Shown here: positions 16,067 through 62,204 of the stretch, in pieces
Numbering within the stretch: position 1 is the stretch's first letter
Layout of the letters: the number at the start of each line of letters is the position of its first letter
Origin: an uncultured bacterium
GTDB taxonomy: Bacteria > Patescibacteriota > Minisyncoccia > UBA6257 > GWB1-50-10
Reading direction: 5' to 3'
Assembly: GCA_963768835.1 (NCBI GenBank)
Contig: CAVYJB010000002.1
Span: 8,230-72,229 of the forward strand
Length of the DNA stretch: 64,000 nt
Notes under the pieces: generated by a model
Databases searched by the model: none
Told to the model about the DNA's origin: nothing
Seen by the model: only the letters and a program-made list of their open reading frames with translations
Made by a program: the position numbers and the translations under genes

Positions 16067-16072
16067 CGTATA

Positions 16073-31777: not shown

Positions 31778-31939
31778 GGCGTTCCTTCCTTTCCGGAGCT
31801 TTCCGCTCCAAAGTGAGTTTCTCACTCGCCGCCTTTCCGGCAGCGTGGTTGTAAATGTACCGCGGGGAAATAATACGATTTTAGATAAATATTGTCAAAC
31901 CATGCAAAAATCTTTATTTCCCGCCAAAAACCGGCGATA

Positions 31940-35261: not shown

Positions 35262-35351
35262 GAGCGCAGGATGTAAAAAGAAATCCCTGCTCTTCCAGAA
35301 GGAAGTGCAGGGATTTTGTATCCCACCTCGGGATTTGGATGGATCGCCCTT

Positions 35352-35666
35352 CTACCGTAGTCGCTGTCGAATCAGGTCAAGCGGGATATCCCTCCATAAG
35401 AATTTCTGAATCTCGGCCACATCATTCCACTGAACAGGTCTTCCGAGGAGCTCCCCAAGAAGCACCCAGCTCCGATACGCCGCATCGGCGCGCAGAAACG
35501 CGGGGGTGACCTCTCTGAGGATCTCGCAAAGGGCTCCTGCGGCGAGACCGGGGTTCAGCTCCTTGGACCGCGAAAAGAATTCCAGAAAGTATTCTACTTC
35601 GTCGGCGAGGGGAAATAGCGTTGCTCTGGGGTCTAATCGAAGAAGTATCTTCGTAAGATCGCTCAT
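35352..35666 (-). CDS. hypothetical protein
   Basis: ORF only; no motifs. Confidence 0.4.
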   Translation of the reverse strand: MSDLTKILLRLDPRATLFPLADEVEYFLEFFSRSKELNPGLAAGALCEILREVTPAFLRADAAYRSWVLLGELLGRPVQWNDVAEIQKFLWRDIPLDLIRQRLR

Positions 35667-35845
35667 GGCACGGCCTCCCAATTGTTATCTAGGGTGGTTG
35701 AAGAGGGCTGCCCACAATAATAAGGAAGGTTTCGTACCCTGGCAATTACCTCCGCCACTGAACGTGTCTAGGACCAGGAGCTTCGGATAAAAGAAAAGCC
35801 CCACTCTCTGGTAGGGCCTTTTGTATTAGCCTTGGGAGGATATTC

Positions 35846-36616
35846 TCATCCCCCACAATACTCCCGCTTCTTGTCTTGGTAATAATCCCAGCAGGATTGG
35901 CAGGACACATTGTGTTTTCCCACGGTCGTGCCCACGGTCATGTGCTGGTAGAGCGCCTCATCCAGGGCCCTTTCCTGCGTAAATAGAGGTCTCCCCGTAC
36001 CAGAGAAAAAGAAGTCGATCTTCTCTCTCGCCGTTTTGCAATCTATTGCTGTTCGGTTTTTGCGTTCCATTATGAACGCATCAATGATGAACCCGAGCGA
36101 GATGGCTTGCTGAAGCGCGAGCCAGGGGTAGTGCTCGATCCACATGAGCCACCCGCACGCAACGTTCATGATCATGAACCAGGCGTATCCGGACGGGCGC
36201 TTCTTTGCGAGCAAGTAGGTCCCGATCAGGTATCCGGCGGTCAGCATGAGCTCGAAAAACTGGTTCAGCGTTGTTAGGCCCCCGAAATCATAAAGACTGT
36301 ACGCGGTACCGAGGGCCACACAGACGAGCGCGAGGTAGTTGAGCCACTTCGGTGATTTACGATCGCTGCCTTGGAGCGCGATCGTGAGTCCCAGAATCAT
36401 CGATGGTAACCCTCCGATCTCAAGCGAAGCGGCAATCCAGTTGCGCTCGATGACGAAAATGATCGCCCATGCCGGAAGCCCCACAATGTAGACAATCCAT
36501 GACCAGATGCGCCACCGCCTCTTCGTGTTATCGCTTCGTCCCCGCTCCATGAGCGAGAAAAATGTCTTGTTGAAGAGGTAAAAGGCGCCTCCCCACCACT
36601 GCAGGAATATGTTCAC
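35846..36616 (-). CDS. PnuC-like (nicotinamide riboside transporter family) membrane protein with Cys-containing C-terminal extension
   Basis: About 7 TM helices with Trp-rich profile like PnuC; GTG start with SD AAGGAGG 6 nt upstream; own TTGACG-N18-TGcTATTCT promoter. Confidence 0.45.
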   Translation of the reverse strand: MNIFLQWWGGAFYLFNKTFFSLMERGRSDNTKRRWRIWSWIVYIVGLPAWAIIFVIERNWIAASLEIGGLPSMILGLTIALQGSDRKSPKWLNYLALVCVALGTAYSLYDFGGLTTLNQFFELMLTAGYLIGTYLLAKKRPSGYAWFMIMNVACGWLMWIEHYPWLALQQAISLGFIIDAFIMERKNRTAIDCKTAREKIDFFFSGTGRPLFTQERALDEALYQHMTVGTTVGKHNVSCQSCWDYYQDKKREYCGG

Positions 36617-36666
36617 TGTTCACCTCCTTGGGATAGACAGTAGCAGATGGAAAAGAGCTTAAATAC

Positions 36667-36696
36667 AGAATAGCACAATTATTCACTATCCGTCAA
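36667..36696 (-). promoter_or_regulatory. sigma70-type promoter TTGACG-N18-TGcTATTCT
   Basis: read on minus strand upstream of 35846..36616. Confidence 0.55.
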
Positions 36697-36795
36697 GTCC
36701 CAACTCCTGCTTGGCGCGCTCAGTACTCGGGTTGGCATAAAAAACACCGACGCGATATAGCGTCGGTGGTGAAAATATAATGACTGAGTCATTGG

Positions 36796-37503
36796 TTACC
36801 GCATAGCGGATCTGAGAATGCTGAGTGTGGTATCGATTGCCGCCTTTCTTTCTCCTTCCATTTTCAGCAGCATGCTATCGATCCGTTCATAGCCGTTCTG
36901 GCCGTGGTGGAACAGTGTGTGGCCGAGGAAGAATTTCCAGAACAGCTCGAGGCCGATAATATCCATCTCGGTGTATTCAACCCCTTCGTGGCCCTCATCG
37001 CCGTCGTGGATGTCAAAAATCCTGTTCTTATGGACCCCGGCAACAAGCGCTCCGCCGTCGGTGAATTGTTTGGTAATCCTCTGAAATGCCTTCTGTATAT
37101 CTGGCACGAACTTTCCCTGGAACCACGCTTGGACCGAAGAAACCACCATTGCCTTCGATTCAGGGGGGAGATTCGAAACGATGTACGACGTTTGGCGTGG
37201 AGAGAGATCGACGTTCGAATTCGGCCAGCTGATCTCATTGAGGAAGACTGAGAACTTCACATTAAGCCACCAATCGTCGCTGCTTCCGTTGATCTGCCCG
37301 CCAATCCAGATTTCCGTGTCGGAACCTTCTGGGTCTTCGGCAATGCGCTGAATCAAAGAGACTCCCTCCAATTTGTTCAAGCAGATGTGGGGCTGAAAAT
37401 GGGTCTCTGGCGTACCGACCAGAGACGCGATCCCTCGATTCAGGTCCACTTTCAACTGCGACTTCTCGTGCAGCGCGATGAGCGTCCAAAGATTCTTTCC
37501 CAT
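36796..37503 (-). CDS. hypothetical protein (low-GC)
   Basis: SD GGAGGAT before MGKNLWTLIAL; promoter TTGACG-N17-TGcTATTCC at 37559-37591 places the TSS downstream of the ORF-track ATG 37560. Confidence 0.45.
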   Translation of the reverse strand: MGKNLWTLIALHEKSQLKVDLNRGIASLVGTPETHFQPHICLNKLEGVSLIQRIAEDPEGSDTEIWIGGQINGSSDDWWLNVKFSVFLNEISWPNSNVDLSPRQTSYIVSNLPPESKAMVVSSVQAWFQGKFVPDIQKAFQRITKQFTDGGALVAGVHKNRIFDIHDGDEGHEGVEYTEMDIIGLELFWKFFLGHTLFHHGQNGYERIDSMLLKMEGERKAAIDTTLSILRSAMR

Positions 37504-37558
37504 AGTATCCTCCGGGTTATTGAATTGGTAAGCCTGAAACGCTATGGGAAGGAATAGC

Positions 37559-37591
37559 ATCAGTAGCGCTATCCGTCAAGCGTTTTCCCAC
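37559..37591 (-). promoter_or_regulatory. sigma70-type promoter TTGACG-N17-TGcTATTCC
   Basis: read on minus strand. Confidence 0.5.
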
Positions 37592-37608
37592 AATCAGGCG
37601 AGGCAAAA

Positions 37609-38289
37609 CTAGAAGGCGTGGATAATATCCTCCGCGCGTTTCAGATCCTCGGGAGAGGTGAGCGAAAACCAGTGCTCCATCGGCTCCACCCAAATGGCGT
37701 GGCTTTTCGCCATCGCGGCGATTGTATGCGGGAGACCAAGCTCGCCGTTGGAGATTCGCACGGGCTCGAATCTTAAAATACCTCGGTCGAGCACGTAGGC
37801 GCCCGTCGCGACGTTCACCGTTTCCTGATCCGGCGTCGCGTGTACGAGCCCCTCCATGGTCCCGTCGGGATGGATTGCCACGTGGAGGTAGCGGCCCGGC
37901 GGATGCGCCATCGCTTTTATGCCGAAGGCAAGCGGGTGGCTCACGAGGCGCTCCAGCTCGTCTTGCCGGTAAAGATCGTCGCCGTTCAGGACCAAAAAGC
38001 GGTCGCGAAGCTGCGGCGCGGCGGCCCAAAGCGCCGCCGCGGTGCCGTTCAGTTCGGTGAGCGCGAGATAGGTGATGGGGATGCTTCCCGGGTTAGCTTC
38101 AAAATAAGCGCGGACCTGCTCGCCCAAATATCCGATGACCAAGACGATTTGATTCACCGCCTTGGGAAGGTTCTGGATGGTGCGGGCGACGATGGGAATG
38201 CCGCCGATGGGAATCAGCGCTTTGGGAATCGAGTCGGTGAGCGGTTGCATCCGGGTTCCTTTCCCCGCAGCGAGAATGACGGCTTGCAT
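37609..38289 (-). CDS. sugar-phosphate nucleotidyltransferase (NTP_transferase family)
   Basis: N-terminal MQAVILAAGKGTRMQPLT... GxGTRxxP motif. Confidence 0.75.
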   Translation of the reverse strand: MQAVILAAGKGTRMQPLTDSIPKALIPIGGIPIVARTIQNLPKAVNQIVLVIGYLGEQVRAYFEANPGSIPITYLALTELNGTAAALWAAAPQLRDRFLVLNGDDLYRQDELERLVSHPLAFGIKAMAHPPGRYLHVAIHPDGTMEGLVHATPDQETVNVATGAYVLDRGILRFEPVRISNGELGLPHTIAAMAKSHAIWVEPMEHWFSLTSPEDLKRAEDIIHAF

Positions 38290-38375
38290 GGGCCCATTGT
38301 AAAGGAACGACGGCGGTTTGAAAAATAGAAAAGGGCGGTCTTGCGACGCGCCCTTTTTGTCAGCCCTCTCCATTG

Positions 38376-38879
38376 TTACTTCTTTAGGAGAGGAATGTCG
38401 TATTGTCCGATGGAAATGGGGTCTTTGTACGATCCATACAGCGGAAAATCATTGGCAGAAAGGTGCCTTAGGTACTGCCGCGTGATGGTCTGCTGAGCCG
38501 GATGAATCTGGATATCATTCCTGGGCGAAGCGAAAAAATGAGATCGATGGACCCACTCCCTCTGGACGGTTTCGTGCTTTGGGATGAAGGGAAGTTCCTC
38601 CACCAGCCGCCCCTCGAAAATGTAGAGGAACCCAAGCTTCTCCTGAAGAGAAAAAAGTCCGATGAGCCGCGTGGGCTTGACCACGACACAGCCCTCTTCG
38701 AATGCCTCCCGCACCCCCGTGTCGAGAACGTTCTCGGTGGCGGGGAAAATCGCTTCATGTGGTCCGCCTCCGGGAAGCGAGAGCTTCGTCTGCTCCTTGT
38801 CGCGCGCGAAGAGAATGTGGTCGTCTTTCATCACAATCAGAAACACGCCGACCTCGTAAATGTTCCGGTTAACAGGCAT
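38376..38879 (-). CDS. Nudix hydrolase
   Basis: Nudix box LPGGGPHEAIFPATENVLDTGVREAFEEGCVV. Confidence 0.7.
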   Translation of the reverse strand: MPVNRNIYEVGVFLIVMKDDHILFARDKEQTKLSLPGGGPHEAIFPATENVLDTGVREAFEEGCVVVKPTRLIGLFSLQEKLGFLYIFEGRLVEELPFIPKHETVQREWVHRSHFFASPRNDIQIHPAQQTITRQYLRHLSANDFPLYGSYKDPISIGQYDIPLLKK

Positions 38880-39001
38880 GGAAACTCTCCTTCTGTAGGG
38901 AACGAATCAGGTAAAACAACTGGCTACAGTAAACCAGAACCGGGTTCTTTTATCCAGTCGGAGAAGGGAATGAAAACCCCCGCGTTCCGCAGGGGTTTCG
39001 G

Positions 39002-39403
39002 TTATGTACCGCGTCGGGCCTGGTAGGCGAGGAGCGCCTCGGGCACGGACTTTCCCGCCCGCACCTGGCCGGCGATGAATTCGCTCTCCGCCATATGCAG
39101 CTCGTGGTCGGCGCCGAATCCGAGAAGCTCGCCCATGAGGCCCTCCGCCCTCGCGATCAGGTCCGTGGCGCGCTCCCGTTCGGAGACTTCGAACGACATC
39201 GAATTGATAATCTCGTCCAGCGCGAGCACGGCGGTCTCCGCAGGAAGCAATCGGCCGTCGAACCGGTCGAGGATGAGCTCGGCCTGCTCGATGCCGGAGA
39301 GACGCGAACCGAACTCCGCCTTCACGTCCAATCGGCGCGCCGCTTCCTCCATCGCCGTAGCGGCCACAAGCTCCTGATGTTCCATTCCGTTCTCCTTTTC
39401 CAT
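39002..39403 (-). CDS. hypothetical protein
   Basis: ORF only. Confidence 0.35.
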   Translation of the reverse strand: MEKENGMEHQELVAATAMEEAARRLDVKAEFGSRLSGIEQAELILDRFDGRLLPAETAVLALDEIINSMSFEVSERERATDLIARAEGLMGELLGFGADHELHMAESEFIAGQVRAGKSVPEALLAYQARRGT

Positions 39404-39405
39404 TA

Positions 39406-40845
39406 TTAGTGAATGATCCTCCTGCAGTATAGGTTGAACTTCTCTCCCCGGTCAAACTCGTTCTTGAACTTCTCGAAACTCGCGGCCCCGGGGGAAAAGA
39501 GGACGACGGTTTTGAGCGCATAGCGCTCGCGCTTCAGTCTGCTCCGGACGGCGTGGATCATCGCGCGAAGCGTCCCGAACGCCTGCGGCATTCCGGCGCG
39601 GAAGTAGCCGATCCGCCGGAGCTCACGGATCATTTTCAGAGTCGCATTCCCCTCGAGGAGAAAAAGGTTGCGGGGCTGCACGTGGCGGGCGACCACGCGC
39701 GCCCACTCTCTGAATTCAAGGTCTTTATCGGTACCGCCCGCAAGGAGAAGAACCTGGCCCGCGCCCTCGGGCGAGGCCGAAAACCGCCGGAGCGCGGCGA
39801 TGGTCGCGTCCGGCGACGTTCCCGCGGAATCGTTCACGATCGTAAGGTTCCTTCGTTGAAGCACGATCTCCTCGCGATACTTGATCTGCGGGAGGGTCGG
39901 AATGCGTCGAAGGAGCGTCCTCCACGGGGCGTCGGCGAGCCGCGCGGCAAGAAGCGCCGCAAGGAGATTCGAAAAGTTGTGGTCGCCCCAGGCTTCGCAC
40001 TGTGCGACGAGCTTGGAAGGAAGGATGACCCGCGCACGGCCGTTCTCCCGGAAATAGACCCGGCGGCGGTCCAGAAACATCCCGTTCTTCCCCTTGGGGA
40101 GCGGCATGAGGGAGAAAAACCACGTTCGGGCTTTTGGCCGTTTCTTCAGAAAGAACCTCGTCCACGCGCTGTCCATGTTCAGAATAAGATGATCCTTCTT
40201 CGTCTGCCGGGAAAAGATGTTGGCTTTCGCGGCGGCGTATTCTCTCATGCCACGATAGCGGTTCAGATGATCGGGGTAGACATTCGTGATCACGGCCACC
40301 GCGGGACCCCGCTTCGACTGCGGCAGGAGCTCGAGCTGCCACGACGAGAGTTCGACGACGGAGGGCTCGCCCGGCTTCAGAGAATCCAGGAGCTTCAGCA
40401 GCGGCAGATCCGAAGACGAATTTCCGCCCGCCCGGGCGCCTAGAAAATGCCCAATCCAGTTGGCCGTCGTGGTCTTCCCCCGAGTCCCCGTCACCGCGAT
40501 GACCGGATTCCGGACTTCATCGAAGAAGATGCTCGCGTCGTTCACGATGCGCTTCCCGGCCCGCCGCGCGACCCTGAGGAAGAGGCTTGTTCGCGGCACC
40601 GCAGGGTTCACTACGATCAAATCGTGGGTCCTGAAGTCACCCGGGTTGTGTCTCCCCAGTACGAACCGAATCCTCCCAGCGTCTTTCCCGAGCGCCTTGA
40701 TCGACGCCGCGAGCTTCGCACGCGTCCTAAGATCGGTCACAGTGACCTTCGCACCACGCTCGAGGAACCACCTTGTGGTCGCTAAACCACCCCCTAGTAC
40801 CCCAAGGCCCACAACAAGAACCTCCTTTCTTCGAAACTCATCCAT
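39406..40845 (-). CDS. murD: UDP-N-acetylmuramoylalanine--D-glutamate ligase
   Basis: Mur ligase N-terminal Rossmann (VLVVGLGVLGGG), ATP-binding GTRGKTTT. Confidence 0.85.
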   Translation of the reverse strand: MDEFRRKEVLVVGLGVLGGGLATTRWFLERGAKVTVTDLRTRAKLAASIKALGKDAGRIRFVLGRHNPGDFRTHDLIVVNPAVPRTSLFLRVARRAGKRIVNDASIFFDEVRNPVIAVTGTRGKTTTANWIGHFLGARAGGNSSSDLPLLKLLDSLKPGEPSVVELSSWQLELLPQSKRGPAVAVITNVYPDHLNRYRGMREYAAAKANIFSRQTKKDHLILNMDSAWTRFFLKKRPKARTWFFSLMPLPKGKNGMFLDRRRVYFRENGRARVILPSKLVAQCEAWGDHNFSNLLAALLAARLADAPWRTLLRRIPTLPQIKYREEIVLQRRNLTIVNDSAGTSPDATIAALRRFSASPEGAGQVLLLAGGTDKDLEFREWARVVARHVQPRNLFLLEGNATLKMIRELRRIGYFRAGMPQAFGTLRAMIHAVRSRLKRERYALKTVVLFSPGAASFEKFKNEFDRGEKFNLYCRRIIH

Positions 40846-40920
40846 ACGGTCTTAATCTTACTATATACAAAGCCTCGTTTCGGATCCCTCAGCGGAGGGC
40901 ATCAGAGCCTGCGTGAGGTA

Positions 40921-40955
40921 ACAAAAAGGCCCTCCGATTCCGAAGAATCGGGAGG
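40921..40955 (-). terminator. intrinsic terminator ending the cassette array
   Basis: 13-bp near-perfect hairpin ggcctcccgattc/gaatcgggagggcc, then TTTTTGTT on minus strand. Confidence 0.7.
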
Positions 40956-40984
40956 CCTTAAACCCTTCTTTATAAGGTTGGTTA

Positions 40985-41305
40985 TTAGCGAAAATCCCTC
41001 CTCGAGCGCGCGATTGATAATGCCATGTAAAACGAGGCGGCAAGTCCGAGTACCACAACGAACAGCCGTCCAGTAAGGGAAATAGGCGTGGACGTGGATA
41101 CGGAAATATAATGCACAAGTGAGAGCGTAGCACAAAGGCAGGCCAGGAGGAGTACAACGAGGGTAGCCCGGAGTGTCCCTCTCAGGTTCCGGTTGCACAC
41201 CGACTGTGGGGTCAGCGGATCCAACGAAATGAATAACCCTACGGTTATTACGAGAAATGCCACCGCGAAGAATAGAACACTGAGTAGTTCGGCATATTCC
41301 AACAT
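40985..41305 (-). CDS. small membrane protein, cassette 1
   Basis: 3 TM helices; SD GGAAGGAG; preceded by repeat A. Confidence 0.5.
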   Translation of the reverse strand: MLEYAELLSVLFFAVAFLVITVGLFISLDPLTPQSVCNRNLRGTLRATLVVLLLACLCATLSLVHYISVSTSTPISLTGRLFVVVLGLAASFYMALSIARSRRDFR

Positions 41306-41360
41306 GTGTCTACTTCTCCTTCCGGTTCTTGTGATTGGGCCAGTGAGAAATGACTGGACA

Positions 41361-41428
41361 CAACCTAACACTCGTCGTACTAACCTGTCAATCTCCGGGG
41401 TCCCCTAGTGGAGGGTGGTAGAACCTGT
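41361..41428 (-). repeat. array repeat A (promoter TTGACA-N18-TGtTAGGTT plus conserved upstream segment)
   Basis: shares ggggtcccctagtggagggtg(g/t)tagaacctgt with copies B, C, D. Confidence 0.7.
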
Positions 41429-41453
41429 GTGGGGGCTTAGAAACATTTCCACG

Positions 41454-41490
41454 ACAAGAAAAAGAGCCAGTCCGCATTGCGAACTGGCCC
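41454..41490 (-). terminator. intrinsic terminator of cassette 2
   Basis: hairpin agagccagt...actggccct then TTTTTCTT on minus strand. Confidence 0.5.
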
Positions 41491-41515
41491 TCTTGGACCG
41501 TGATACCCATGAACC

Positions 41516-41830
41516 TTAGGCAAGAAAGACGGACAGCTTCCCTAGGAGAGCTCGTATGTCCTGTTCTCCAGTGGATGTCACCAATGTATCCTTGTAGAAA
41601 CACAGATGTCCGTGCTCTTCGCAAAACTTGCCGAGCAGTTTCCAGTCGTAGTCCAAAATACTGGACGCACGGACTATCGCGGGTTCATCTTTTGGGAGAC
41701 CCTCGATGGTTCCATCCCACCACTGCGCTTCCAGACGCACGTCTAGTCTTTCGAGTTCCTCGAAGAGTGCAGGCGAAAAGGCCGCTGAGCTCTCGAGCGT
41801 GACGTAGTATGGAAACATGAATACTTTCAT
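41516..41830 (-). CDS. hypothetical 104-aa protein, cassette 2
   Basis: SD AAGGAGG; no motifs. Confidence 0.5.
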   Translation of the reverse strand: MKVFMFPYYVTLESSAAFSPALFEELERLDVRLEAQWWDGTIEGLPKDEPAIVRASSILDYDWKLLGKFCEEHGHLCFYKDTLVTSTGEQDIRALLGKLSVFLA

Positions 41831-41866
41831 ATCTTCCTCCTTGTTAAATGACGTAAGGCTGAAAGC

Positions 41867-41950
41867 AAGCTAGCACTCATTGTGCTAGTTCGTCAATCTG
41901 AGACTCGTCCGTCGGAGTTGGGTCCCCTAGTGAAGGGTGTTAGAACCTGT
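41867..41950 (-). repeat. array repeat B (promoter TTGACG-N18-TGcTAGCTT; spacer forms palindrome CTAGCAC-N5-GTGCTAG)
   Basis: best-conserved copy; begins 37 nt upstream of the ATG. Confidence 0.75.
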
Positions 41951-41957
41951 TTTAGGC

Positions 41958-41989
41958 TAAGTATAAAGGGCCCAGCAAATGCTGAGCCC
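41958..41989 (-). terminator. intrinsic terminator of cassette 3
   Basis: gggctcagc-attt-gctgggccc then TTTATACTT on minus strand. Confidence 0.5.
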
Positions 41990-42091
41990 TAACTCGTGGC
42001 CATTGGCCTTCAGACTACTCGTGTCAGCCCGCACGCCTCAGTTGCACATTCTTGCGCTCTGCTTTCTGCTTTAACCATTTCTTCGTCACGA

Positions 42092-42379
42092 CTAACCCCA
42101 TCTCCTTAACCAGTCGCTTGGAATCTGCCTCTGGTAGGGTCGACAGGACGCCACAGCCCGTACAGGACCGTTCCCTTCCTCTGGATCATCAACGCGCACG
42201 AGAGCACCGACAGACCAGAAGATGAGATTGTTAGGTCCGGAATCGATATTATGTACGGAGGTCGTGACTTTCCTTCTTTTCTTGCACACAGGACATTCAA
42301 GCAGTGCCTTCACGCCGAAATATACTTCAATCGCGCTGCCAGCTCCTGTCACGTACGGCTTCCAACTCAAGAGTTTCAT
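42092..42379 (-). CDS. hypothetical 95-aa protein with CPVC motif, cassette 3
   Basis: SD AGGAAGGAG before MKLLSWKPYV; ORF-track start 42418 lies inside repeat C. Confidence 0.5.
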   Translation of the reverse strand: MKLLSWKPYVTGAGSAIEVYFGVKALLECPVCKKRRKVTTSVHNIDSGPNNLIFWSVGALVRVDDPEEGNGPVRAVASCRPYQRQIPSDWLRRWG

Positions 42380-42416
42380 TCCGTACTCCTTCCTGATTAT
42401 GAGTAATACTGAAGAC

Positions 42417-42501
42417 AAGCTAGTACTTATTGTGTTAGTCCGTCAATCGAAGACCTCATCCGTTGGGTTTGAGTCCTTTAGTGGAGGATGTTAGAACCTG
42501 T
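42417..42501 (-). repeat. array repeat C (promoter TTGACG-N18-TAcTAGCTT)
   Basis: about 80% identical to B. Confidence 0.7.
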
Positions 42502-42516
42502 GTGGTAGCGATAGAA

Positions 42517-42548
42517 CAATTTAAAAGCCACCCAGTGAATTGGGCGGC
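42517..42548 (-). terminator. intrinsic terminator of cassette 4
   Basis: gccgccca-attcact-gggtggc then TTTTAAATTGTT on minus strand. Confidence 0.55.
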
Positions 42549-42606
42549 TTAATACAATAGGCACTGAATCCGGTGGCTCTTTGGGATCCGTGAGGTTCGC
42601 GTGTAG

Positions 42607-42855
42607 CTACGGAGGAAAGTTTGACCCCGTGAGATTTCGCGGCTGATCGAATCGTTTCAGAAACTCTTCCAGATTCATGTCGTCGCCGATAAGGCCGGGC
42701 GCCCACCCGAAGGGATGGGGGTCAGCCACCATCAGCTTGTCGAACTCCGCTTGGGTAAGAATTCTTTCCGGTTCGCTCATTTGATGGCTACCGGCTCCGA
42801 CAAAAGGAAAGCCGACCATGAGCTCCTCGTTGACGTAGAACACGTCAGAATTCAT
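42607..42855 (-). CDS. hypothetical 82-aa protein, cassette 4 (second gene)
   Basis: 4-nt overlap with upstream ORF. Confidence 0.45.
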   Translation of the reverse strand: MNSDVFYVNEELMVGFPFVGAGSHQMSEPERILTQAEFDKLMVADPHPFGWAPGLIGDDMNLEEFLKRFDQPRNLTGSNFPP

Positions 42856-43085
42856 TCTGAACGGCGCGGAGAGAGAGTCTCCCAGACTTTTTTGAGAAGG
42901 TTGGGTTCAAGGGTGAACACCATGCGTTCCTCTTCTCGAACAATGGCAGGGAAAGAACCCATAAGACCGTGGACGAGCTCGAGGTAGTAGACTGCCTTGA
43001 GCTGGTATCCCGGCGTCTTCTCGGCGAACAGCTGCTCGAGATTCTTCGGCACTCCCGGAATCGGATTTCTGTTTCGTTGCGGCAT
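42852..43085 (-). CDS. hypothetical 77-aa protein, cassette 4 (first gene)
   Basis: SD AAGGAGGT; follows repeat D. Confidence 0.45.
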   Translation of the reverse strand: MPQRNRNPIPGVPKNLEQLFAEKTPGYQLKAVYYLELVHGLMGSFPAIVREEERMVFTLEPNLLKKVWETLSPRRSE

Positions 43086-43133
43086 ATATACCTCCTTGTA
43101 AAGTGGAAGTTGTTCTGGATACAGCTGCTCACC

Positions 43134-43208
43134 ATACTAGCTGCCTTCTGAAGAATGTAAAGCTGTCCGTCGGGTCTGGGTCCCCTAGTGGAGGACGTTA
43201 GAACCTGT
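43134..43208 (-). repeat. array repeat D (diverged promoter TTTACA-N16-TAGTAT; conserved upstream segment)
   Basis: retains gggtcccctagtggaggacgttagaacctgt. Confidence 0.65.
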
Positions 43209-43338
43209 TTGGGGTAAAGAAAGAGCGGCCCTTTGTGGGGACTGCCCTGAAAGCAGCGTCTCGCTTCAGTCGTTCAGCGTGTAATACTGCGTATAAGGAG
43301 CTCGGCTCGTCCGACAACGCATCCTCGTGTCCCACCCA

Positions 43339-43722
43339 TTAGGTTAGCCGACGTCGCACGAATCCGACGCTCTTCACCCGATAGTCGGGCGCGACATCAC
43401 GCTCGGGATCGTTCTCAGAAAAATCGATCTCGATCTTCCGCCCGTCGGGATATCCTCTATCGAAAAGGTGTTCGTTCAGACGTACTAGACCCTCGTAGGC
43501 TGGAGTGCAGTCCTCCATCACCCAATGCAGAAGACCGGTATCATCTTCTAAGAGCGGCTCTTCCGGGGTTAGCTTCGAGAACGTTAACTCCCTAATCTCG
43601 GGAATGGTGTGGACTTCCACGTACTTACCAATGAGAAGATCAATTACTTTCTCGGTCAACACATCGCTTCCCTGAAGCTTGTCCAGGAAGAATACGTAGG
43701 GCGTCCGGTACTCATCCAGCAA
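43339..43722 (-). CDS. hypothetical 127-aa protein, cassette 5 (second gene)
   Basis: ORF only. Confidence 0.45.
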   Translation of the reverse strand: MLDEYRTPYVFFLDKLQGSDVLTEKVIDLLIGKYVEVHTIPEIRELTFSKLTPEEPLLEDDTGLLHWVMEDCTPAYEGLVRLNEHLFDRGYPDGRKIEIDFSENDPERDVAPDYRVKSVGFVRRRLT

Positions 43723-43780
43723 TGCCTTCTGCCCCTCTTCTCCTATCCGCTCGGAACCGAGGATTTCCTTTCGCGCATCC

Positions 43781-44245
43781 TTAATCTGGGGATGCGTTCA
43801 GGAAATTATCTCGCAATTCGAAACCGCTCCCGAAACGGTCGGTCAGGTGAACTAGTAATTTGAAGGAGATCTCCGCCGTGCAGATGTTCCATGCGAGCAC
43901 GAGCGGCCCTGAATATACGTTGGGTTCCTCCGTCTCGACCTGAGTAAAAAATGGGCAAGTAGAAGAACTTGCCGATCCGCTCATACATCCTCCCGGCGAC
44001 CGGTAGAAGAACCTGAAGAGCTGGTCCTTCACGTCCGCATTGTTGAACAAGGGAGTAAGTGCGGCATGCGCTTCTGCAAGCAGGCGAGAGAGCGATTCTA
44101 CCGCAAACAGGACATTTTTCAGAAGTGCCCGCCTTTCCTTGTTCCAGAGAATCTGTTCCTTCCTTGCCTTGCTGGAGAGTCCCCGTAACGCCGTCTGTAC
44201 CCTCTCCTCGATCAAGGCTCCCGACGCCGGAACTGTTGTTGTCAT
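43781..44245 (-). CDS. hypothetical 154-aa protein, cassette 5 (first gene)
   Basis: SD AAAGGAG; follows repeat G. Confidence 0.45.
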   Translation of the reverse strand: MTTTVPASGALIEERVQTALRGLSSKARKEQILWNKERRALLKNVLFAVESLSRLLAEAHAALTPLFNNADVKDQLFRFFYRSPGGCMSGSASSSTCPFFTQVETEEPNVYSGPLVLAWNICTAEISFKLLVHLTDRFGSGFELRDNFLNASPD

Positions 44246-44292
44246 CGCCCGACTCCTTTCAGTGATATGTGTGATGTAATGCTGCTACTACG

Positions 44293-44356
44293 AACCTAGC
44301 ACCTAACGTATCCATCGGTCAAACTCTTCAATGAAAGGTTTGGTTCTCCCCTCAGG
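44293..44356 (-). repeat. array repeat G (promoter TTGACC-N18-TGcTAGGTT; T-arm-like part replaced by a terminator)
   Basis: retains cctgaggggagaaccaaacc similar to cactaggggacccaactcc. Confidence 0.55.
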
Positions 44357-44357
44357 G

Positions 44358-44388
44358 ATATATAAAAGCCGCTGGGGGTACCAGCGGC
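44358..44388 (-). terminator. intrinsic terminator of cassette 6
   Basis: gccgctgg-tacccc-cagcggc then TTTTATATAT on minus strand. Confidence 0.6.
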
Positions 44389-44391
44389 GTC

Positions 44392-44610
44392 TTAGTGTTC
44401 CGGCATTTTCAATGGTACGTCAATGATGCATTGAGTCATCGGTAATGCGATCCTGGAGCTCATGAATCGCCCTCCGACACTCGGGAGAACACGCATCAAA
44501 CTCCTCCATGGTGAACCGGAGAAGCCAAGGATTGCCTTCTCCATCGGCATGCCTTCTCCCCGTGTCTTGTAGTGACGGCAATCCCTGTTATCGCACATAA
44601 AACGCTCCAC
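44392..44610 (-). CDS. hypothetical 72-aa Cys-containing protein, cassette 6
   Basis: GTG start with SD GGAAGG. Confidence 0.4.
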   Translation of the reverse strand: MERFMCDNRDCRHYKTRGEGMPMEKAILGFSGSPWRSLMRVLPSVGGRFMSSRIALPMTQCIIDVPLKMPEH

Positions 44611-44691
44611 GACCTTCCCGTGCTCAACGATGTAATATTTGATGGTACACCTCTGTCAGTGTTAGGGTTGTTGGATATTTGTTCTAACAAG

Positions 44692-44735
44692 AAGCTAGCA
44701 CTCGTCGTGCCAGTTCGTCAAACAGTTGGTCCCCC
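44692..44735 (-). repeat. array repeat E (promoter TTGACG-N18-TGcTAGCTT; upstream part truncated)
   Basis: agctagcactcgtcgtgccagttcgtcaa matches B. Confidence 0.65.
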
Positions 44736-44928
44736 CAAGCTACCCAAAATACTTTTCTAATACATCAAAGTAATCGCTCCCGTCGTCCACTTCCTTATAG
44801 TCTTTCCTGTCCACCCATCGAAATCTATCGTGCTCGTCGCTCAACCTTAATGCGCCAGAGATATATTTGCACCTAAGCGCCACGAGATAGACCTCTTTCC
44901 CGTAGTTCCTATGACCCTCAGGGAACTC

Positions 44929-44972
44929 CCGTCCGTCGGAGTTGGGTGGGTAACGGGATTCGAACCTCCTTC
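44929..44972 (-). repeat. tRNA 3'-end-like remnant (T-loop GGTTCGAATCC + GTTACCCACC), possible att-site relic
   Basis: exact GGTTCGAATCC 11-mer on minus strand followed by acceptor-like GTTACCCACC; no matching 5' acceptor strand, so not an intact tRNA. Confidence 0.5.
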
Positions 44973-44975
44973 AGG

Positions 44976-45009
44976 AGTATACAAGACGACCCTGAAGAAT
45001 CAGGGTCGT
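44976..45009 (-). terminator. intrinsic terminator downstream of hppA
   Basis: 9-bp stem acgaccctg/cagggtcgt, loop ATTCTT, then CTTGTAT on minus strand. Confidence 0.5.
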
Positions 45010-45041
45010 TCTGCTGGACAGAGTTTTCGATTCGAGCCCGG

Positions 45042-47462
45042 CTATTCCTCCTTGATGCGCATCCGGTAGAACGAGCGCCAGACGAAGATCGACCGCGATG
45101 GCGAAAAAGACCGCCGCCATGATCGCGGAGGTCCCGCGCGGGAGCTGATGGCGAGCTCGACGGCCAGGAGCCCGAAGAGCGTCGTGAACTTGATGACGGG
45201 GTTCATCGCCACCGAGGAGGTGTCCTTGAAGGGATCGCCCACGGTGTCGCCCACGACCGTCGCCGCATGGAGCTCGGTGCCCTTCTCCTTGAGCTCGGTC
45301 TCCACGAGCTTCTTCGCGTTGTCCCAGGCGCCGCCGGCGTTGGCCATGAAGATGGCCTGGTAGAGGCCGAAGAGGGCGATGGAGATGAGGTAGCCGATGA
45401 AGAAGTAAGGGTCGAGGCAGGCGAAGGCGAGGGTGGAGAAGAAGACGGCGAGGAAGATGTTGAACATCCCCTTCTGCGCGAACTGCGTGCAGATCTCGAC
45501 GACCTGCTTGGAGTCGGCGACCGAGGCCTTGTCGCTCGACTCGAGCTTGATGTTCTTCTTGATGAACTCCACGGCGCGGTACGCGCCCGCGACGACGGCC
45601 TGCAAGGACGCGCCCGTAAACCAGTAGATGACCGCGCCGCCCGTGATGAGGCCCAGCAGGAACGGCGGGTTGCAGGATGCGAAAGGTTCGAGACGAGGTC
45701 CGCCTGGAGCCCCTTTGTGAGGAGCATGGATGATGGAGAAGATCAGGGTCGTCGCGCCCACCACGGCGGTGCCGATGAGGACCGGCTTCGCGGTCGCCTT
45801 GAAGGTGTTTCCCGCGCCGTCGTTCTCCTCGAGGAACATCTTGGCCGCTCGAAATCCGGCTCAAACCCGAACTCCCTCTGCATCTCCGCCTTCGCGCCCG
45901 GGAGCGTCTCGATGATGCGAGAGCTCGTAGATGGACTGGGCGTTGTCCGTCACCGGGCCGTAGGAGTCCACCGCGATCGTCACGGGCCCGATGCCCAGGA
46001 ACCCGAAGGCCACGAGGCCGAAGGCGAAGACCGCCGGCGCGATCATGATCGAGGCGAACCCCAGCGTGCTGATGCCGTAGGCCACCCCCATGAGGGCGAC
46101 GATCGCGAGCCCCAGCCAGTACGCGCCGAAGTTGCCCGCGGTGAGGCCCGAGAGGATGTTCAGCGACGCGCCGCCTTCCCGCGACGCCGCAGGATCTCCT
46201 CACGTGGCCGGACGAGGTGGAGGTGAAGACTTTCACCAGCTCGGGGATGAGCGCGCCCGCGAGCGTCCCGCAGCTGATGACCGAGGCGAGCTTCCACCAG
46301 AGCGTCCCGTCGCCCAGGCTCGGGATGAGGAGGTAGGATACAGATAGGTCATCGCGATCGAGACGAGGGACGTGAGCCAGACGAGGGACGTGAGCGGCTT
46401 CTCGGAATTCATGGTCGCGGCGTTCTCGTAGCGGGCCTTCGCGGCCGCTTCGTTCAGCCAGTAGGAGCCCGCGCTCGTCACGACCATCATGATGCGCATC
46501 GCGAAGATCCAGACGAGGAGCTGACCTGGGTGACCGCGGACGCCACCGCGAGCAGGATAAAGGTGATGAGGGCGACCCCCGTCACGCCGTACGTTTCGAA
46601 GCCGTCCGCCGTGGGACCTACGGAGTCCCCCGCGTTGTCGCCGGTGCAGTCCGCGATCACGCCGGGGTTGCGGGCGTCATCCTCCTTGATCCGGAAGATG
46701 ATCTTCATGAGGTCCGAGCCGATGTCCGCGATCTTCGTGAAGATGCCGCCCGCCACCCGGAGCGCCGCCGCGCCGAGGGACTCGCCGATGGCGAACCCGA
46801 TGAGGCACGCGCCCGCGAGCTTGCCGGGCACGAAGAGAAGGATGCGAAGCATGATGAGGAGCTCCACGGAGATGAGGAGGGTCCCGACGCTCATCCCGGC
46901 CTGAAGCGGAATGCGGTAGGTGGGATAAGGCTTTCCGCGGAGGCTCGCGAAGGCGGTCCGGGAGTTCGCGAACGTGTTGATGCGCATCCCGAACCACGCC
47001 ACGGAGTAGCTTCCCAGGATGCCGAGGACGCTGAAGGCGAGGATGATAAGGACCCGCGCCGCGCCCATCTGCTCCAGAAACCCGAAGTACACCACGATAA
47101 TGAGCGCCGATGAAGACCTCGAGGATGGCCAGGAACTTTCCCTGCGTCACGAGGTACGTCTTGCACGTCTCGTAGATGAGCTCGGACATCTCCTTCATCG
47201 CGCGGTGCACCGGCAGCGCGCGGATCTTCATGAACATCGTGAGCCCGAAGAGCATGCCGAGGAGACAGACCGCGATCCCGCCGAGAAGGAGCGTGAACCC
47301 GCTCACGCCGAGGAAGGAGACGGTGCTCAGATCGGGAAGGACGATGGATGCCTCGCTCCCGTGCGCCAAGGACGGCAGGAGAAACGCGGCGGCCGTCAGA
47401 ACCGGAGCGCTCCGAAGCGCCCACCGGCGGGACATGATTTTAGAAAATGCGGGGAATTCCAT
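45042..47462 (-). pseudogene. hppA: membrane-bound H+/Na+-translocating pyrophosphatase disrupted by at least 4 frameshifts
   Basis: Five consecutive ORF pieces in different frames carry collinear PPase segments: N-terminus (LPDLSTVSFLGV...), DCTGDNAGDS, DSYGPVTDNAQSIYELS, GDTVGDPFKDTS, C-terminal TMs. Confidence 0.7.
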
Positions 47463-52441: not shown

Positions 52442-53341
52442 TCAGTTTTTCCTGTTTATCCGTTTTAGCAGCTTTTCGACCTCCCGTACCCTCATTTTTA
52501 GATCGCTTTGGAGGGTAGCCCCGACAAAGACCCTGAGGAGGGGTTCCGTATTGGAGGGACGAACGTTCAGGACCCAGCCGCCGAACTCGAGCGTCAGCCC
52601 ATCAATGACGGAGGACCGAACGCTCTTTTTCCCATAGGCGTTGCGGACCTCTTTGATAAGTTTCGATGGGTCCGCCGCTTGGACGTTAAATTGCTCGGAA
52701 TGGAAAGGCGTGGGAAGAAGATCCACGAACGCCGCGAGTCCGTAAGGAAGCCGGGAGACCGCGTTCAGGACGCGCACCGCCGAGAGGATGCCGGAATCCT
52801 GGCCGTAGAACTCCTGGAAATAATAGTGCCCGGAGTACTCCGCGGCCGCGCCGGCGCGTAGCGTCCGCATCTTCCTCTTAATGAAGAAGGAGCCGACCCG
52901 GGAGGGGAAGGTTCGGGGCGCGAGAAGCCCGGCCATCCTCAGCGATTCGTAGGTCAGGATATCGGCGATGAAAGGCGGCCGGCTCTCCATGAAAAGGAGG
53001 TGGGCGATGACATGGCTTGGGACGGGTCGCCCCCGATCGTCCGCGTAAAAGGCCCGGTCCCCGTCCGCATCGAAGACAACCCCGATGTCCGCCCGGTGCT
53101 CTCGCACCTCGCGGGCGAGGCACGCCTGGGCCCTCGGGAGGAGGGGATTCGGCCCGTGCGCCGGGAAGTTGCCGCTCAGGCGCTTGTTCGCGAGAAACAA
53201 CCGGAGGCGGGGATTGCGCGCATAGACTTTGGGAACGATGAGCTCTGTTGGGCCGTTCGAGCAGTCGAAGACGGCGCGCAACGGGCGCCGGAGATCGGCG
53301 AACGTGCGGAGGAACGCGGCGTACCGGTCGGCGTAGGTCAT
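52442..53341 (-). CDS. phosphomannomutase/phosphoglucomutase, domains II-IV (split from domain I)
   Basis: FDADGDR metal-binding loop, SGHYYF, RPSNTEPLLRV sugar/phosphate-binding motifs. Confidence 0.75.
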   Translation of the reverse strand: MTYADRYAAFLRTFADLRRPLRAVFDCSNGPTELIVPKVYARNPRLRLFLANKRLSGNFPAHGPNPLLPRAQACLAREVREHRADIGVVFDADGDRAFYADDRGRPVPSHVIAHLLFMESRPPFIADILTYESLRMAGLLAPRTFPSRVGSFFIKRKMRTLRAGAAAEYSGHYYFQEFYGQDSGILSAVRVLNAVSRLPYGLAAFVDLLPTPFHSEQFNVQAADPSKLIKEVRNAYGKKSVRSSVIDGLTLEFGGWVLNVRPSNTEPLLRVFVGATLQSDLKMRVREVEKLLKRINRKN

Positions 53342-53727
53342 GGACGGAAAATGAGCCGCTGGATTTCCTTCCCGCTCATCGGAAGGCCGTGCGCCCCGAG
53401 AACCTTAAGCCCGTTGTATTCCTTCGGATTGTGGGAGGCGGTCACCATGATGCCTCCCGCGGCCGGAAGCGCGTTCGCGAAGTAGTAGAACATGGGCGTC
53501 GTGGCGAGCCCCAGCGCGATGAGGCGGCGGCGCCCCGACGCTTCAAGCCCTGCCTGCACGGCGCGGTAGAGCGCCAAGGAGCTTCGCCGCCCGTCGTGCC
53601 CCACCACCACGGGTCCTTTTCCGAAAAACGCCCCGAGCCCGCGGGCGATGACGCCCGCATCCGCGACATCGAACTCTACAGGAACACGTCCGCGGATGTC
53701 ATAGGCGCGAAAGATTTTCGGGCTCAT
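53338..53727 (-). CDS. phosphomannomutase/phosphoglucomutase domain I (split from domains II-IV)
   Basis: Active-site serine loop GGIMVTASHNP; stop TGA overlaps downstream ATG (ATGA). Confidence 0.7.
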   Translation of the reverse strand: MSPKIFRAYDIRGRVPVEFDVADAGVIARGLGAFFGKGPVVVGHDGRRSSLALYRAVQAGLEASGRRRLIALGLATTPMFYYFANALPAAGGIMVTASHNPKEYNGLKVLGAHGLPMSGKEIQRLIFRP

Positions 53728-53772
53728 TTCCTTGAATTCTAACCCCGTTTGGACTTTAATTGAAATGCCTTC

Positions 53773-55890
53773 ATGTCGAAGAACCGGAACCGTAACAACA
53801 GGCGGGAGGGTAAGGGCGCGCGGACAGAGTTCCGAGATGCGCCGGCGATGCCAAACCTTCACCCCGATATCAAGAAGAGCGTTTGGATCGTCACCTTCCT
53901 CGGCCTCACGCTGCTCCTCATTCTCGCGGCCGCCGGACAGGCCGGCCCGTGGGGAGCGTCCTTCTATACCGCGTTCCAAAAACTCCTCGGCGTCGGATAT
54001 TTCTTCCTGCCCCTCGTGAGCTTCCTCTTCGCGCTTTCCTTCTTCACGCTGGAGCGCGAGCGTCTTTTCGGGGTCACCCTCATTGGAGGGGTCCTTTTCG
54101 TCCTCGCGGGGCTCGGTTTCATTGATATCGTCTCGAGCGGCAGCGGCGCCGGGCTGGTGGGGAATCTGGTCGGAGCCGTGAAGACCCCCTTCGGCGTGCC
54201 CGCCGGCATCGTCATCACGTTCACGGCGCTCGTGGCGTCCTTCCTCGTCACCATCAACCGTCCCCTGAAGCTCGCCTGGTTCCGGCGCCGGAAGAACGAC
54301 GAAGCCTCGACGGTGGCGACCGTAGTCCCCGTGAACCTTCCGTCCGCGCCGCCCGAACCGGAACCCGAGCCGGAGCCCGAACCTGTGAAGCCTGCGAAAA
54401 AGGGGAAGGTGACCGACGGCGGGGAGGCGCCCCTGCGCTCCTCGGAACCGCGACCCATCCGGAACTACGTCCCGCCGCCCCTCTCGCTTCTCTCCACGAC
54501 GGTCGAGAAGCCCACTATCGGGGACCTCCAGGCGAACGCCAACATTATCAAGCGGACCCTCGACAGCTTCGGCATCCCTGTGGAGATGGGGGAGATCAAT
54601 GTGGGCCCGACCGTCACCCGCTATACCCTGAAGCCCGCGGAGGGCGTGAAGATCTCGCGTATCACGACCCTGAGTTCCGACCTCGCGCTCGCCCTCGCGG
54701 CGCACCCCATCCGCATCGAGGCTCCGATCCCGGGAAAGTCCCTCGTGGGCATCGAGGTACCGAACCGCGCCGCGGCGATAGTGCGCCTGGGAAGCCTGCT
54801 CCTCTACCCCGATTTCCAGAAAGCGGAAGGGCTCGCCTTCGCGCTCGGGCGGAACGTCCAGGGCGATCCCATCTTCCCCGACATCGAGAAGATGCCCCAC
54901 CTCATGATCGCGGGCGCCACGGGTTCGGGGAAATCCATCACCATCCACGATCTCATCATCTCGCTCCTTTATAAGAACTCCCCCGAGATGCTCTCGCTCA
55001 TCCTCATCGATCCGAAGCGCGTGGAACTCTCTATCTATGAGGGCCTGCCGCATCTCATCGCTCCGGTCGTGACGGACAACAAACGCGCCATGGGAGCTCT
55101 CCGCTGGGTCATTCAGGAAATGGACCGCCGCTACCAGCTCCTCCTCGAGGCCGGTGCGCGCGACATCAAGAGCTACAACCGCGCGGCCGCCGAACGCCTG
55201 CCGTTCGTTCTGGTCATCATCGACGAGCTCGCCGACCTCATGTCGACCTACGGCCGCGAGGTCGAGGGTTCCATCATCCGCCTCGCCCAGATGGCGCGCG
55301 CGACCGGCATTCACCTCGTCGTTTCGACCCAGCGCCCGTCCGTCGAGGTCATCACGGGTCTCATCAAAGCGAACATCACCTCCCGCATCGCGCTTCAGGT
55401 GGCGAGCCAGATCGACTCCCGGACCATCCTCGACACTGCCGGAGCCGAGAAGCTCCTGGGACACGGGGACCTTCTCTTCGTCTCCGCCGAGCTGTCGAAA
55501 CCCCAGCGCATCCAGGGCGCCTACCTCACCGAGGACGAGATCAAGGCGGTGGTGAGTTTTATCAAAAAGCACAACGAGGCCGCCGAGCCAGTCGTCGAGA
55601 TCGAGGCGCACAACGGCGACGAGAGCGCGGAGGGATCCGTGGAAGGGGGTGTGAACTTCGAGGATCTCGCGGGCGAGAATGCGGACGATGACGCGCTGTA
55701 CGCGGAAGCGGTGGAGGTGGTACGGGTCGCGAAGAAAGCTTCCGCATCCCTTCTCCAGCGACGCCTGAAGGTTGGATACGCCCGTGCCGCGCGGCTCCTC
55801 GACCTCATGGAGGAGCACGGCATCGTGGGGCCCGGCGAAGGGGCGAAACCACGCGACGTCTACGCGGAAGGAGGCGACCCCTTAAACTAA
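53773..55890 (+). CDS. ftsK: DNA translocase FtsK/SpoIIIE
   Basis: N-terminal TM helices, Pro-rich linker, Walker A (GATGSGKS), Walker B (VLVIIDELADL), C-terminal gamma wHTH; start may be 53851. Confidence 0.85.
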   Translation: MSKNRNRNNRREGKGARTEFRDAPAMPNLHPDIKKSVWIVTFLGLTLLLILAAAGQAGPWGASFYTAFQKLLGVGYFFLPLVSFLFALSFFTLERERLFGVTLIGGVLFVLAGLGFIDIVSSGSGAGLVGNLVGAVKTPFGVPAGIVITFTALVASFLVTINRPLKLAWFRRRKNDEASTVATVVPVNLPSAPPEPEPEPEPEPVKPAKKGKVTDGGEAPLRSSEPRPIRNYVPPPLSLLSTTVEKPTIGDLQANANIIKRTLDSFGIPVEMGEINVGPTVTRYTLKPAEGVKISRITTLSSDLALALAAHPIRIEAPIPGKSLVGIEVPNRAAAIVRLGSLLLYPDFQKAEGLAFALGRNVQGDPIFPDIEKMPHLMIAGATGSGKSITIHDLIISLLYKNSPEMLSLILIDPKRVELSIYEGLPHLIAPVVTDNKRAMGALRWVIQEMDRRYQLLLEAGARDIKSYNRAAAERLPFVLVIIDELADLMSTYGREVEGSIIRLAQMARATGIHLVVSTQRPSVEVITGLIKANITSRIALQVASQIDSRTILDTAGAEKLLGHGDLLFVSAELSKPQRIQGAYLTEDEIKAVVSFIKKHNEAAEPVVEIEAHNGDESAEGSVEGGVNFEDLAGENADDDALYAEAVEVVRVAKKASASLLQRRLKVGYARAARLLDLMEEHGIVGPGEGAKPRDVYAEGGDPLN

Positions 55891-62188: not shown

Positions 62189-62204
62189 GACGGAACCCGG
62201 AAAG

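Follow-up and report, generated by a model that had tools for sequence, protein, structure and literature searches.

Between hppA, coding for an H+-pyrophosphatase (45042-47462, minus strand), and the core gene murD (39406-40845, minus strand), the window, meaning the whole 64,000-nt stretch of DNA analyzed here, carries a 4.1-kb array of small gene cassettes, of which a short stub of tRNA sequence forms the hppA-proximal border and murD marks the far end. The hppA assignment comes from Pfam (H_PPase), three-frame translation, and tblastn with the protein of a relative (L042), and that of murD from Pfam and the nusA-hppA-murD synteny of relatives. The interval contains eight or nine small open reading frames (ORFs), all on the minus strand and none with a Pfam family, and it is of foreign composition, with 51% GC in the array (41-45 kb, left of the stub) compared with ∼62% in the flanks, and a sharp step to 62-67% immediately right of the stub. 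A second low-GC patch (14000-16700, 41-50% GC), which codes for a Fic/DOC protein, a peptidase S51, and a NUDIX protein and lacks the cassette motif, is possibly another island.

The hppA gene is readable only through several frame switches, which are locally compensated +1/-1 shifts; it is intact (801 aa) in relatives, and its C-terminus is in frame in L001, a second assembly of this organism, such that the shifts reflect either pseudogenization or consensus errors in a strain-mixed assembly. Genes for a class I aminoacyl-tRNA synthetase (31892-34019) and a phosphoglucomutase (52442-55818) are each apparently split over adjacent or overlapping ORFs, possibly by further assembly frameshifts. 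A 1010-aa leucyl-tRNA-synthetase-like ORF (8825-11857, minus strand) has an alpha/beta-hydrolase-like segment (residues 246-360) inside its catalytic domain.

Reading along the minus strand, the hppA stop codon TAG (45042-45044) is followed by a 32-nt spacer, a hairpin (45009-44986), CTTGTATA, a second and smaller hairpin, the stub GGTTCGAATCCCGTTACCCACCC, and AACTCCGACGGACGG. The first hairpin, which begins 32 nt past the stop codon, folds with a 10-bp stem and a 4-nt loop, rather than the 9 bp and 6 nt given in the first-pass annotation, where it was interpreted as the hppA intrinsic terminator. It is terminator-like but lacks a T-run, its tail being CTTGTATAC with no U-tract, and a terminator scan makes no call; however, a canonical terminator occupies the equivalent position in L042, and the hairpin is thus plausibly the hppA terminator. 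The second hairpin (CTCC-TGAA-GGAG, 44966-44977, minus strand) has a 4-bp stem, abuts the stub in the place of a tRNA body, and has no likeness to tRNA-His in alignment A2. The heptamer TTGTATA is present at both outer edges of the 4.1-kb insert (44978-44984 and 40864-40870), and in L042 the hppA terminator is followed by one copy of TTTGTGTATAG; the pair may represent a target duplication, microhomology from the original insertion, or chance.

The stub is a genuine tRNA-His 3' end without a tRNA body. Its 23 bases (44944-44966, minus strand), contained within the string noted in the first-pass annotation (44942-44969), correspond to tRNA positions 52-73 plus one base, with the T-loop, the 3' strand of the T-stem, the 3' strand of the acceptor, and the C73 identity of tRNA-His. 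The 22-mer GGTTCGAATCCCGTTACCCACC is present in 18 species genomes, none of them a Patescibacterium, and in 18/18 it forms the 3' end of an intact tRNA-His(GTG); in alignment A2 with real tRNA-His, the stub is identical from G52 through C73, with nothing alike 5' of G52, and the parental type is therefore tRNA-His. The T-loop 11-mer is weak evidence by itself, as two copies are found with one mismatch allowed and 2.5 are expected by chance. ARAGORN, the check proposed at first pass, reports only tRNA-Val(TAC) and tRNA-Ile(TAT) in the 64-kb window (62.1-62.3 kb) and none at the stub; Rfam at gathering thresholds returns the same two tRNAs and nothing else, and no tRNA is found between 39000 and 46000 even at E<=10. 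The would-be T-stem is unpaired (GGAGG against CCCGT, with two Watson-Crick pairs and one G-T), and neither a 5' acceptor strand nor a D-arm of tRNA-His is present anywhere in the 64 kb. The first-pass description of a minus-strand tRNA 3'-half-like sequence that has no 5' acceptor strand or D-arm and is not an intact tRNA is therefore correct, and its type can now be specified.

Several other origins for the stub were considered. The tRNA-Ile in the window is not its parent, sharing only the T-loop 11-mer, and a split or intron-containing tRNA-His was rejected, as no 5' half is found in the window. Nor is the stub a diverged cassette unit, as it has no match to the unit model R1 (described below) at E<=10, and the likeness between GGTTCGAA and GGTTCTAA scores inside the null range. 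The tRNA-Ile (62204-62276, minus strand), adjacent to tRNA-Val, has the anticodon TAT (UAU), an unusual bacterial way to read AUA, and such a gene is also present in a metagenome contig bearing the cassette motif (L032, 29-102). By itself the stub is an ordinary kind of object, and orphan tRNA fragments bordering foreign DNA are commonplace.

The cassettes share a common plan, with a promoter-like leader, one or two ORFs, a terminator, a 23-nt motif (ACAGGTTCTAAC-NN-CCTCCACTA), and a short copy of a tRNA 3' end. In the window, the motif reads ACAGGTTCTAAC-NN-CC(T/C)(T/C)CACTA and is followed by GGGGACCC; these 45-nt units are about 520-710 bp apart with ORFs between them, giving cassettes of 0.5-0.7 kb. 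R1, a sequence-only model built from 31 motif copies (alignment A4), finds exactly four units in the 64 kb, all on the minus strand (E=1e-10 to 1e-14), and none elsewhere in the window. Terminator-like hairpins precede units (41990-41967, 44388-44368, and 40947-40930), and leaders with a TTGAC(G/A) box come after them. A palindrome, CTAGCAC-N5-GTGCTAG, lies between a -35-like TTGACG and a -10-like box in several leaders (41870-41888, 44695-44713, and 42420-42438, minus strand); it looks like an operator, which would suggest a common regulator of the cassettes.

At the head of the array, the stub overlaps by its last four bases an 18-nt junction core, ACCCAACTCCGACGGACG (44930-44947, minus strand), composed of the last tRNA-end bases and the conserved left end (P') of the first cassette, with an exact second copy at 41906-41923, just past the motif of unit B. 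Fused directly to the core is the 3' remnant of a NUDIX cassette gene (64 codons and a stop, 44740-44929); the gene is complete in a third assembly (L044), and a frameshift-corrected conceptual translation matches PF00293. A leader box of repeat family D2 (TTGACG, then the palindrome CTGGCAC-N5-GTGCTAG, 44692-44721) is located upstream of a 72-aa ORF (44392-44610), whose homologue in L044 is called at 84 aa. Two ORFs of 154 and 127 aa with no Pfam family (43339-44245) precede unit D, which comprises the 23-nt motif and GGGGACCC (43175-43217, E=7.6e-14). The overlapping ORFs of 77 and 82 aa that come next (42607-43085) correspond to a single 149-aa ORF in L044 (P0126, 4099-4548), and there is therefore a frameshift in one of the two assemblies. 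Unit C (42468-42507, E=4.2e-11), a 95-aa ORF (42092-42379), and unit B (41918-41957, E=3e-12), whose 3' side bears the second copy of the 18-nt core, are followed by a 104-aa ORF (41516-41830), which by comparison is the first cassette past the stub in L001. Unit A (41397-41434, E=2.7e-10) and a 106-aa ORF (40985-41305) complete the series, together with a degenerate fifth unit beside murD (40877-40911), which is missed by R1 and has a local alignment score of 27, whereas random windows (about 1900) score 25 at most; it is presumed to be the oldest junction. All of these features are on the minus strand. A half unit near 44340 was rejected because its score is not significant.

The stub does adjoin repeats, as claimed at first pass, but they are not a tandem or CRISPR-like array. 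TRF finds nothing at the locus, and the unit spacing (522-707 bp, with ORFs in between) departs from the 25-40-nt repeats and 25-50-nt spacers of a CRISPR. The internal repeats are copies of the conserved 23-nt motif with only 5-8 nt of tRNA-end identity after it. The motif shows neither dyad symmetry nor a stable fold (DNA fold z-scores of -1.7 to +0.8, with no long hairpin), the units match no Rfam family, and a search of Rfam down to E<=10 yields no relevant RNA family at the locus.

Three assemblies of this organism (the window, L001, and L044) have three different cassette contents. L001, a Logan contig from run ERR11594402, is 99.97% identical to window positions 35199-41923 and then passes straight into 44925-45197. 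It is without window positions 41924-44929 and their six ORFs, and the stub is joined through ACCCAACTCCGACGGACG to the unit-B cassette; the cassette next to the stub in L001 thus sits 3 kb further off in the window. NCBI and ENA contain proteins of the missing block and Logan does not, consistent with its absence from L001, and all three contain those of the two cassettes retained in L001. Since k=31 in Logan assemblies and the shared repeat is 18-22 nt, a graph collapse is unlikely to have generated the L001 join. L044, a noisy ENA contig, matches positions 44928-41923 at 94.8%, and continues upstream of the shared block with an intact NUDIX-type gene, one more unit, and one more cassette. 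The final 64 codons of this NUDIX gene make up window positions 44740-44929, and the first window cassette has therefore lost about 290 nt just after its conserved left end. The polymorphism in cassette presence and absence falls exactly at the core beside the stub, which is probably a live or recently live junction, and placement of the stub at a recombination boundary of inserted DNA in the first-pass annotation is borne out.

MurD homologues assign the organism, an ultra-small groundwater bacterium, to Patescibacteria, close to Jorgensenbacteria/Paceibacterota, and its source contig measures 551,795 nt. The same locus in relatives informs its ancestral state. In the closest relative with context (P0002, 68% MurD identity), the order is nusA, an intact 801-aa hppA, a 350-nt gap, and murD; in L042 and L043 (65% MurD identity), hppA and murD are separated by a 76-nt spacer with a canonical terminator and no tRNA. 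L037 to L040 have neither hppA nor a tRNA at the murD locus, and the P0003 contig starts at murD and adds nothing on the upstream side. Since hppA is followed by murD in relatives, the whole 4.1 kb is an insertion, and as they have no tRNA there, the stub is probably not a decayed resident tRNA gene; these comparisons give no sign that a tRNA-His gene ever resided at this locus. The 23-nt motif is absent from the relatives' murD loci and from the tRNA-His loci of other phyla.

The motif is not confined to this organism. A scan of JGI metagenomes with the motif identifies 16 contigs, in which a relaxed pattern and R1 reveal arrays of up to 9 units per 9 kb, and the motif is always trailed by one of three segment types, GGCGGAGC, TCCCGCTC(A), or GGGGACCC. 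At four distinct loci, an intact tRNA gene lies upstream of the array in the same orientation: tRNA-Asn in L028 and in L029/L036 (which are identical in sequence), tRNA-Gly(tcc) in L021, and tRNA-Gly(gcc) in L032. The segment past the motif at these four loci is nt 68-75 of the heading tRNA, in a constant register in which base n after CCACTA is tRNA position 66+n. The units are thus linked to tRNA 3' ends across the family, with three tRNA targets in genomes of 40-62% GC, and within the motif two positions are free and the others nearly invariant. Conservation of cassette left ends is limited to individual lineages. In L032, a single cassette separates the tRNA-Gly end from a terminator, and the same terminator directly follows tRNA-Gly in L021; from the sequences, the two would differ by a single insertion. 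In L025 and L032, the scanner predicts terminators some 15 nt ahead of units and strong sigma70-like promoters some 15 nt past them; the motif is therefore sited between transcription units, as would be expected of a DNA site more than of an RNA element.

Cargo genes of the family include ndk, dagK, PAP2, an ABC-2 transporter pair, TspO, an SPFH protein, and an RCC1-repeat protein. Two contigs carry additional tRNA fragments: L029 (about 800-1010, minus orientation) has a 170-nt insert between 15-nt direct repeats of the tRNA-Asn 3' end, and L023 (121-215) has inverted T-arm-like fragments (GACTCGAACCG and CGGTTCGAGTC) before the first cassette, such that tRNA-end stubs recur around arrays. 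The motif is absent from phage and plasmid collections, and its one match in IMG/VR is a chance one inside a phage coding region. A limited literature search found no description of the motif or of such arrays in Patescibacteria, which is not proof of novelty.

In Pfam scans covering the array ORFs and the majority of the long ORFs from 0.1 to 64 kb, no recombinase or integrase is identified, and recA (56571-57617) is the sole recombinase-type gene among the scanned ORFs. It is adjoined by a gene for a TrbC/VirB2-type type IV secretion pilin-like protein (57662-58621, minus strand). No recombinase is found in the metagenome array contigs either, with the exception of L024, in which a truncated large serine recombinase gene (2-883) is 840 nt upstream of a unit (1722-1744). 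A sharp GC break at about 1090 separates this gene from the unit, and the homologues of its product share at most 69% identity, the named ones being from non-Patescibacteria metagenome-assembled genomes; its candidacy as the enzyme of the system is thus unsupported. L024 is the only contig with a large serine recombinase gene near a unit, and the motif lacks symmetry.

On balance, we regard the stub as probably the chromosomal attachment site, or the relic of one, of an integron-like but attC-less cassette system served by a recombinase in trans. The enzyme would be encoded elsewhere and would exchange strands within a short (5-8-nt) tRNA-end segment. One partner would be the site on a putative circular cassette, consisting of the motif, tRNA-end bases, and the cassette left end, and the other a chromosomal site consisting of the T-arm and acceptor end of a tRNA. 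The bases after the motif would be in register with about nt 69-75 of the acceptor 3' strand, which here is ACCCA; the predicted circle junction would read unit-B motif, ACCCA, AACTCCGACGG..., NUDIX remnant, and the parental tRNA-His would end ...CCCGTTACCCACCC. As to the direction of events, each new cassette would be inserted beside the tRNA end, displacing the older ones, and blocks would be excised when two junctions recombine with each other, yielding the layout tRNA-(newest cassette)-motif-...-(oldest cassette)-motif-flank, which matches that of the array.

In the other genomes, the chromosomal site would be an intact tRNA-Asn or tRNA-Gly gene; only a stub is present here, and therefore it would serve as an attB/attI-like site or be its relic. 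Because the locus retains only the tRNA part from G52 on and its junction coincides in tRNA position with those of the intact heads, the stub may be read as a sufficient attachment site, or again a relic. We infer that recombination is site-specific rather than homologous, and the class of the enzyme is likewise conditional. Several observations count against the cassette reading: no recombinase gene is found among the scanned ORFs, the motif is without dyad symmetry or a stable fold, the L001 junction departs by a single G from the product predicted from the window, the truncation inside the first cassette means that not every junction is clean, the identity of His-type units with the tRNA part of the stub is only 5 nt (ACCCA, nt 71-75), and left ends are conserved only within lineages.

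Homologous recombination between units and the plain decay of conventional islands are viable rivals. In a scheme of the former kind, the units (23-45 nt) would be mere homology anchors, and DNA from relatives or from sister copies would recombine through RecA or by slippage with no dedicated recombinase. A recA gene is present, no integrase is found near arrays, Patescibacteria are regarded as naturally competent, and the breakpoint between L001 and the window is inside an 18-nt perfect repeat, which could equally support a RecA-independent deletion and to that extent also counts against the cassette reading. However, at 18-25 nt the anchors would barely reach, or fall short of, the length that RecA usually needs for efficient recombination, and shuffling by homology leaves unexplained both the fixed-register match of the post-motif bases to whichever tRNA heads the array and the two free motif positions amid a nearly invariant remainder; we consider it unlikely. 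A similarly low probability attaches to an inert relic, in which one or more integrase-bearing elements once occupied a tRNA-His gene, the tRNA body and integrase were deleted, a displaced fragment and decayed cargo were left behind, and the assembly differences are deletions between short repeats. The T-arm is a common sublocation of integrase crossover, and the stub begins in the T-arm; one cassette is truncated by an illegitimate deletion, and the L029 insert is flanked by tRNA-Asn repeats. Islands are typically marked by a regenerated tRNA and a displaced 3' fragment (PMC4383910), and tycheposons include tandem elements separated by partial tRNAs as well as scattered partial tRNAs (10.1101/2020.12.28.424599). 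Against a relic, the internal repeats are a distinct motif spanning a wide range of GC and three tRNA targets rather than tRNA fragments, the 0.5-0.7-kb cassettes contain no integrase remnants, relatives have no tRNA at the locus, and the polymorphism is exactly at the core.

It is improbable that hppA and murD were once separated by a functional tRNA-His that drew in cassettes and later lost its 5' two-thirds. Such a resident would account for a stub that is upstream in cassette orientation, as are the intact tRNA-Asn and tRNA-Gly heads (L028, L029/L036, L021, and L032), and P0002 has a 350-nt hppA-murD gap that could have held one, but hppA, the terminator, and murD are within 76 nt in L042 and L043 with no tRNA, and none is present in L037 to L040. 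Moreover, nothing tRNA-His-like remains upstream of G52, and 0/18 genomes with the exact 22-mer are Patescibacteria. A chance resemblance, with the stub not tRNA-derived at all, would be in keeping with the unpaired T-stem and with an 11-mer that is insignificant when one mismatch is allowed, but it is effectively refuted by the run of 23 consecutive bases identical to tRNA-His 3' ends, for which the chance expectation in 128 kb is about 1e-9.

The interest of the locus rests on the cassette family and not on the stub, as the motif spans Patescibacteria-like contigs of very different GC and is always tied to the extreme 3' end of tRNAs. Tentatively, and with less confidence than for the stub itself, the family may represent an undescribed gene-capture system of Patescibacteria (CPR), in which mini-cassettes bearing promoters and terminators and a universal 23-nt site move in and out at the terminal 5-8 nt of tRNA genes (Asn, Gly, and His) or of tRNA-end stubs, with the recombinase acting in trans. 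These tiny genomes would then have a dedicated route for gene exchange, providing a concrete and testable mechanism of gene flux in the Patescibacteria radiation; R1 would be a searchable DNA signature for accessory genes in metagenomes, and the compact 30-50-bp site would point to the kind of recombinase involved. Although the genomes of Patescibacteria are very small, as much as 13% of their length is attributed to horizontally acquired DNA, in an account that makes no mention of tRNAs, integrases, or cassettes (PMC12455944).

The first-pass annotation likened the stub to the classic attL/attR footprint of tRNA-targeting elements, and a tRNA 3' fragment does lie exactly at the junction of inserted DNA; however, there is no regenerated tRNA at the other end, no integrase among the scanned ORFs, and the internal repeats are not tRNA fragments. 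As in canonical tRNA/tmRNA islands of the Islander model (PMC4383910), a tRNA 3' fragment precisely ends the foreign DNA and a short core direct repeat lies inside it, but no intact tRNA-His is regenerated in the window, no integrase is found, and the fragment is at the array head, where the intact gene is expected, rather than at the distal end. The 18-nt core repeats at 44930-44947 and 41906-41923, and the distal end has only the degenerate unit.

Tycheposons of Prochlorococcus carry integrases and replication modules, and their junctions are attachment sites with typically about 40 nt of partial tRNA (10.1101/2020.12.28.424599). They resemble the arrays in stacking at the 3' end of a tRNA gene, where newcomers are proposed to push older elements inward, in the partial tRNA sequences at junctions, in their adaptive or housekeeping-like cargo, and in their streamlined host genomes. 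In contrast, only 5-8 nt are tRNA-derived here, the units are 0.5-0.7 kb, no integrase is found, and the conserved part is a non-tRNA 23-nt motif common to different tRNA targets. IMEX elements and pdif modules lack integrases, have short conserved sites, use host Xer recombinases in trans, and can stack in arrays. The array modules are likewise integrase-less and bounded by short conserved sites, although the motif shows nothing like the 11-6-11 dyad of dif, and it is a tRNA end, not dif, that is targeted.

The array differs from integrons and CALINs in several respects. Its units have no R''/R' inverted pair or imperfect hairpin and are 23-45 nt rather than the 57-141 nt of attC, and RYYYAAC-like boxes were rejected as attC sites, as they have no GTTRRRY partner downstream and no fold. 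The cassettes bear promoter-like leaders and terminators, and the fixed site is a tRNA 3' end rather than attI, with no intI, or any tyrosine recombinase, among the scanned ORFs of the window. As in a CALIN, no recombinase lies beside the array, and like both it is a one-directional array of small, mostly unannotatable single-gene cassettes, with a recombination-site-like sequence only at the 3' end of each. The cassettes are co-oriented and their content varies between strains, and one fixed site heads the array, with the observed variation adjoining it. The cassette family looks like a new form of tRNA-linked, integron-like gene capture.
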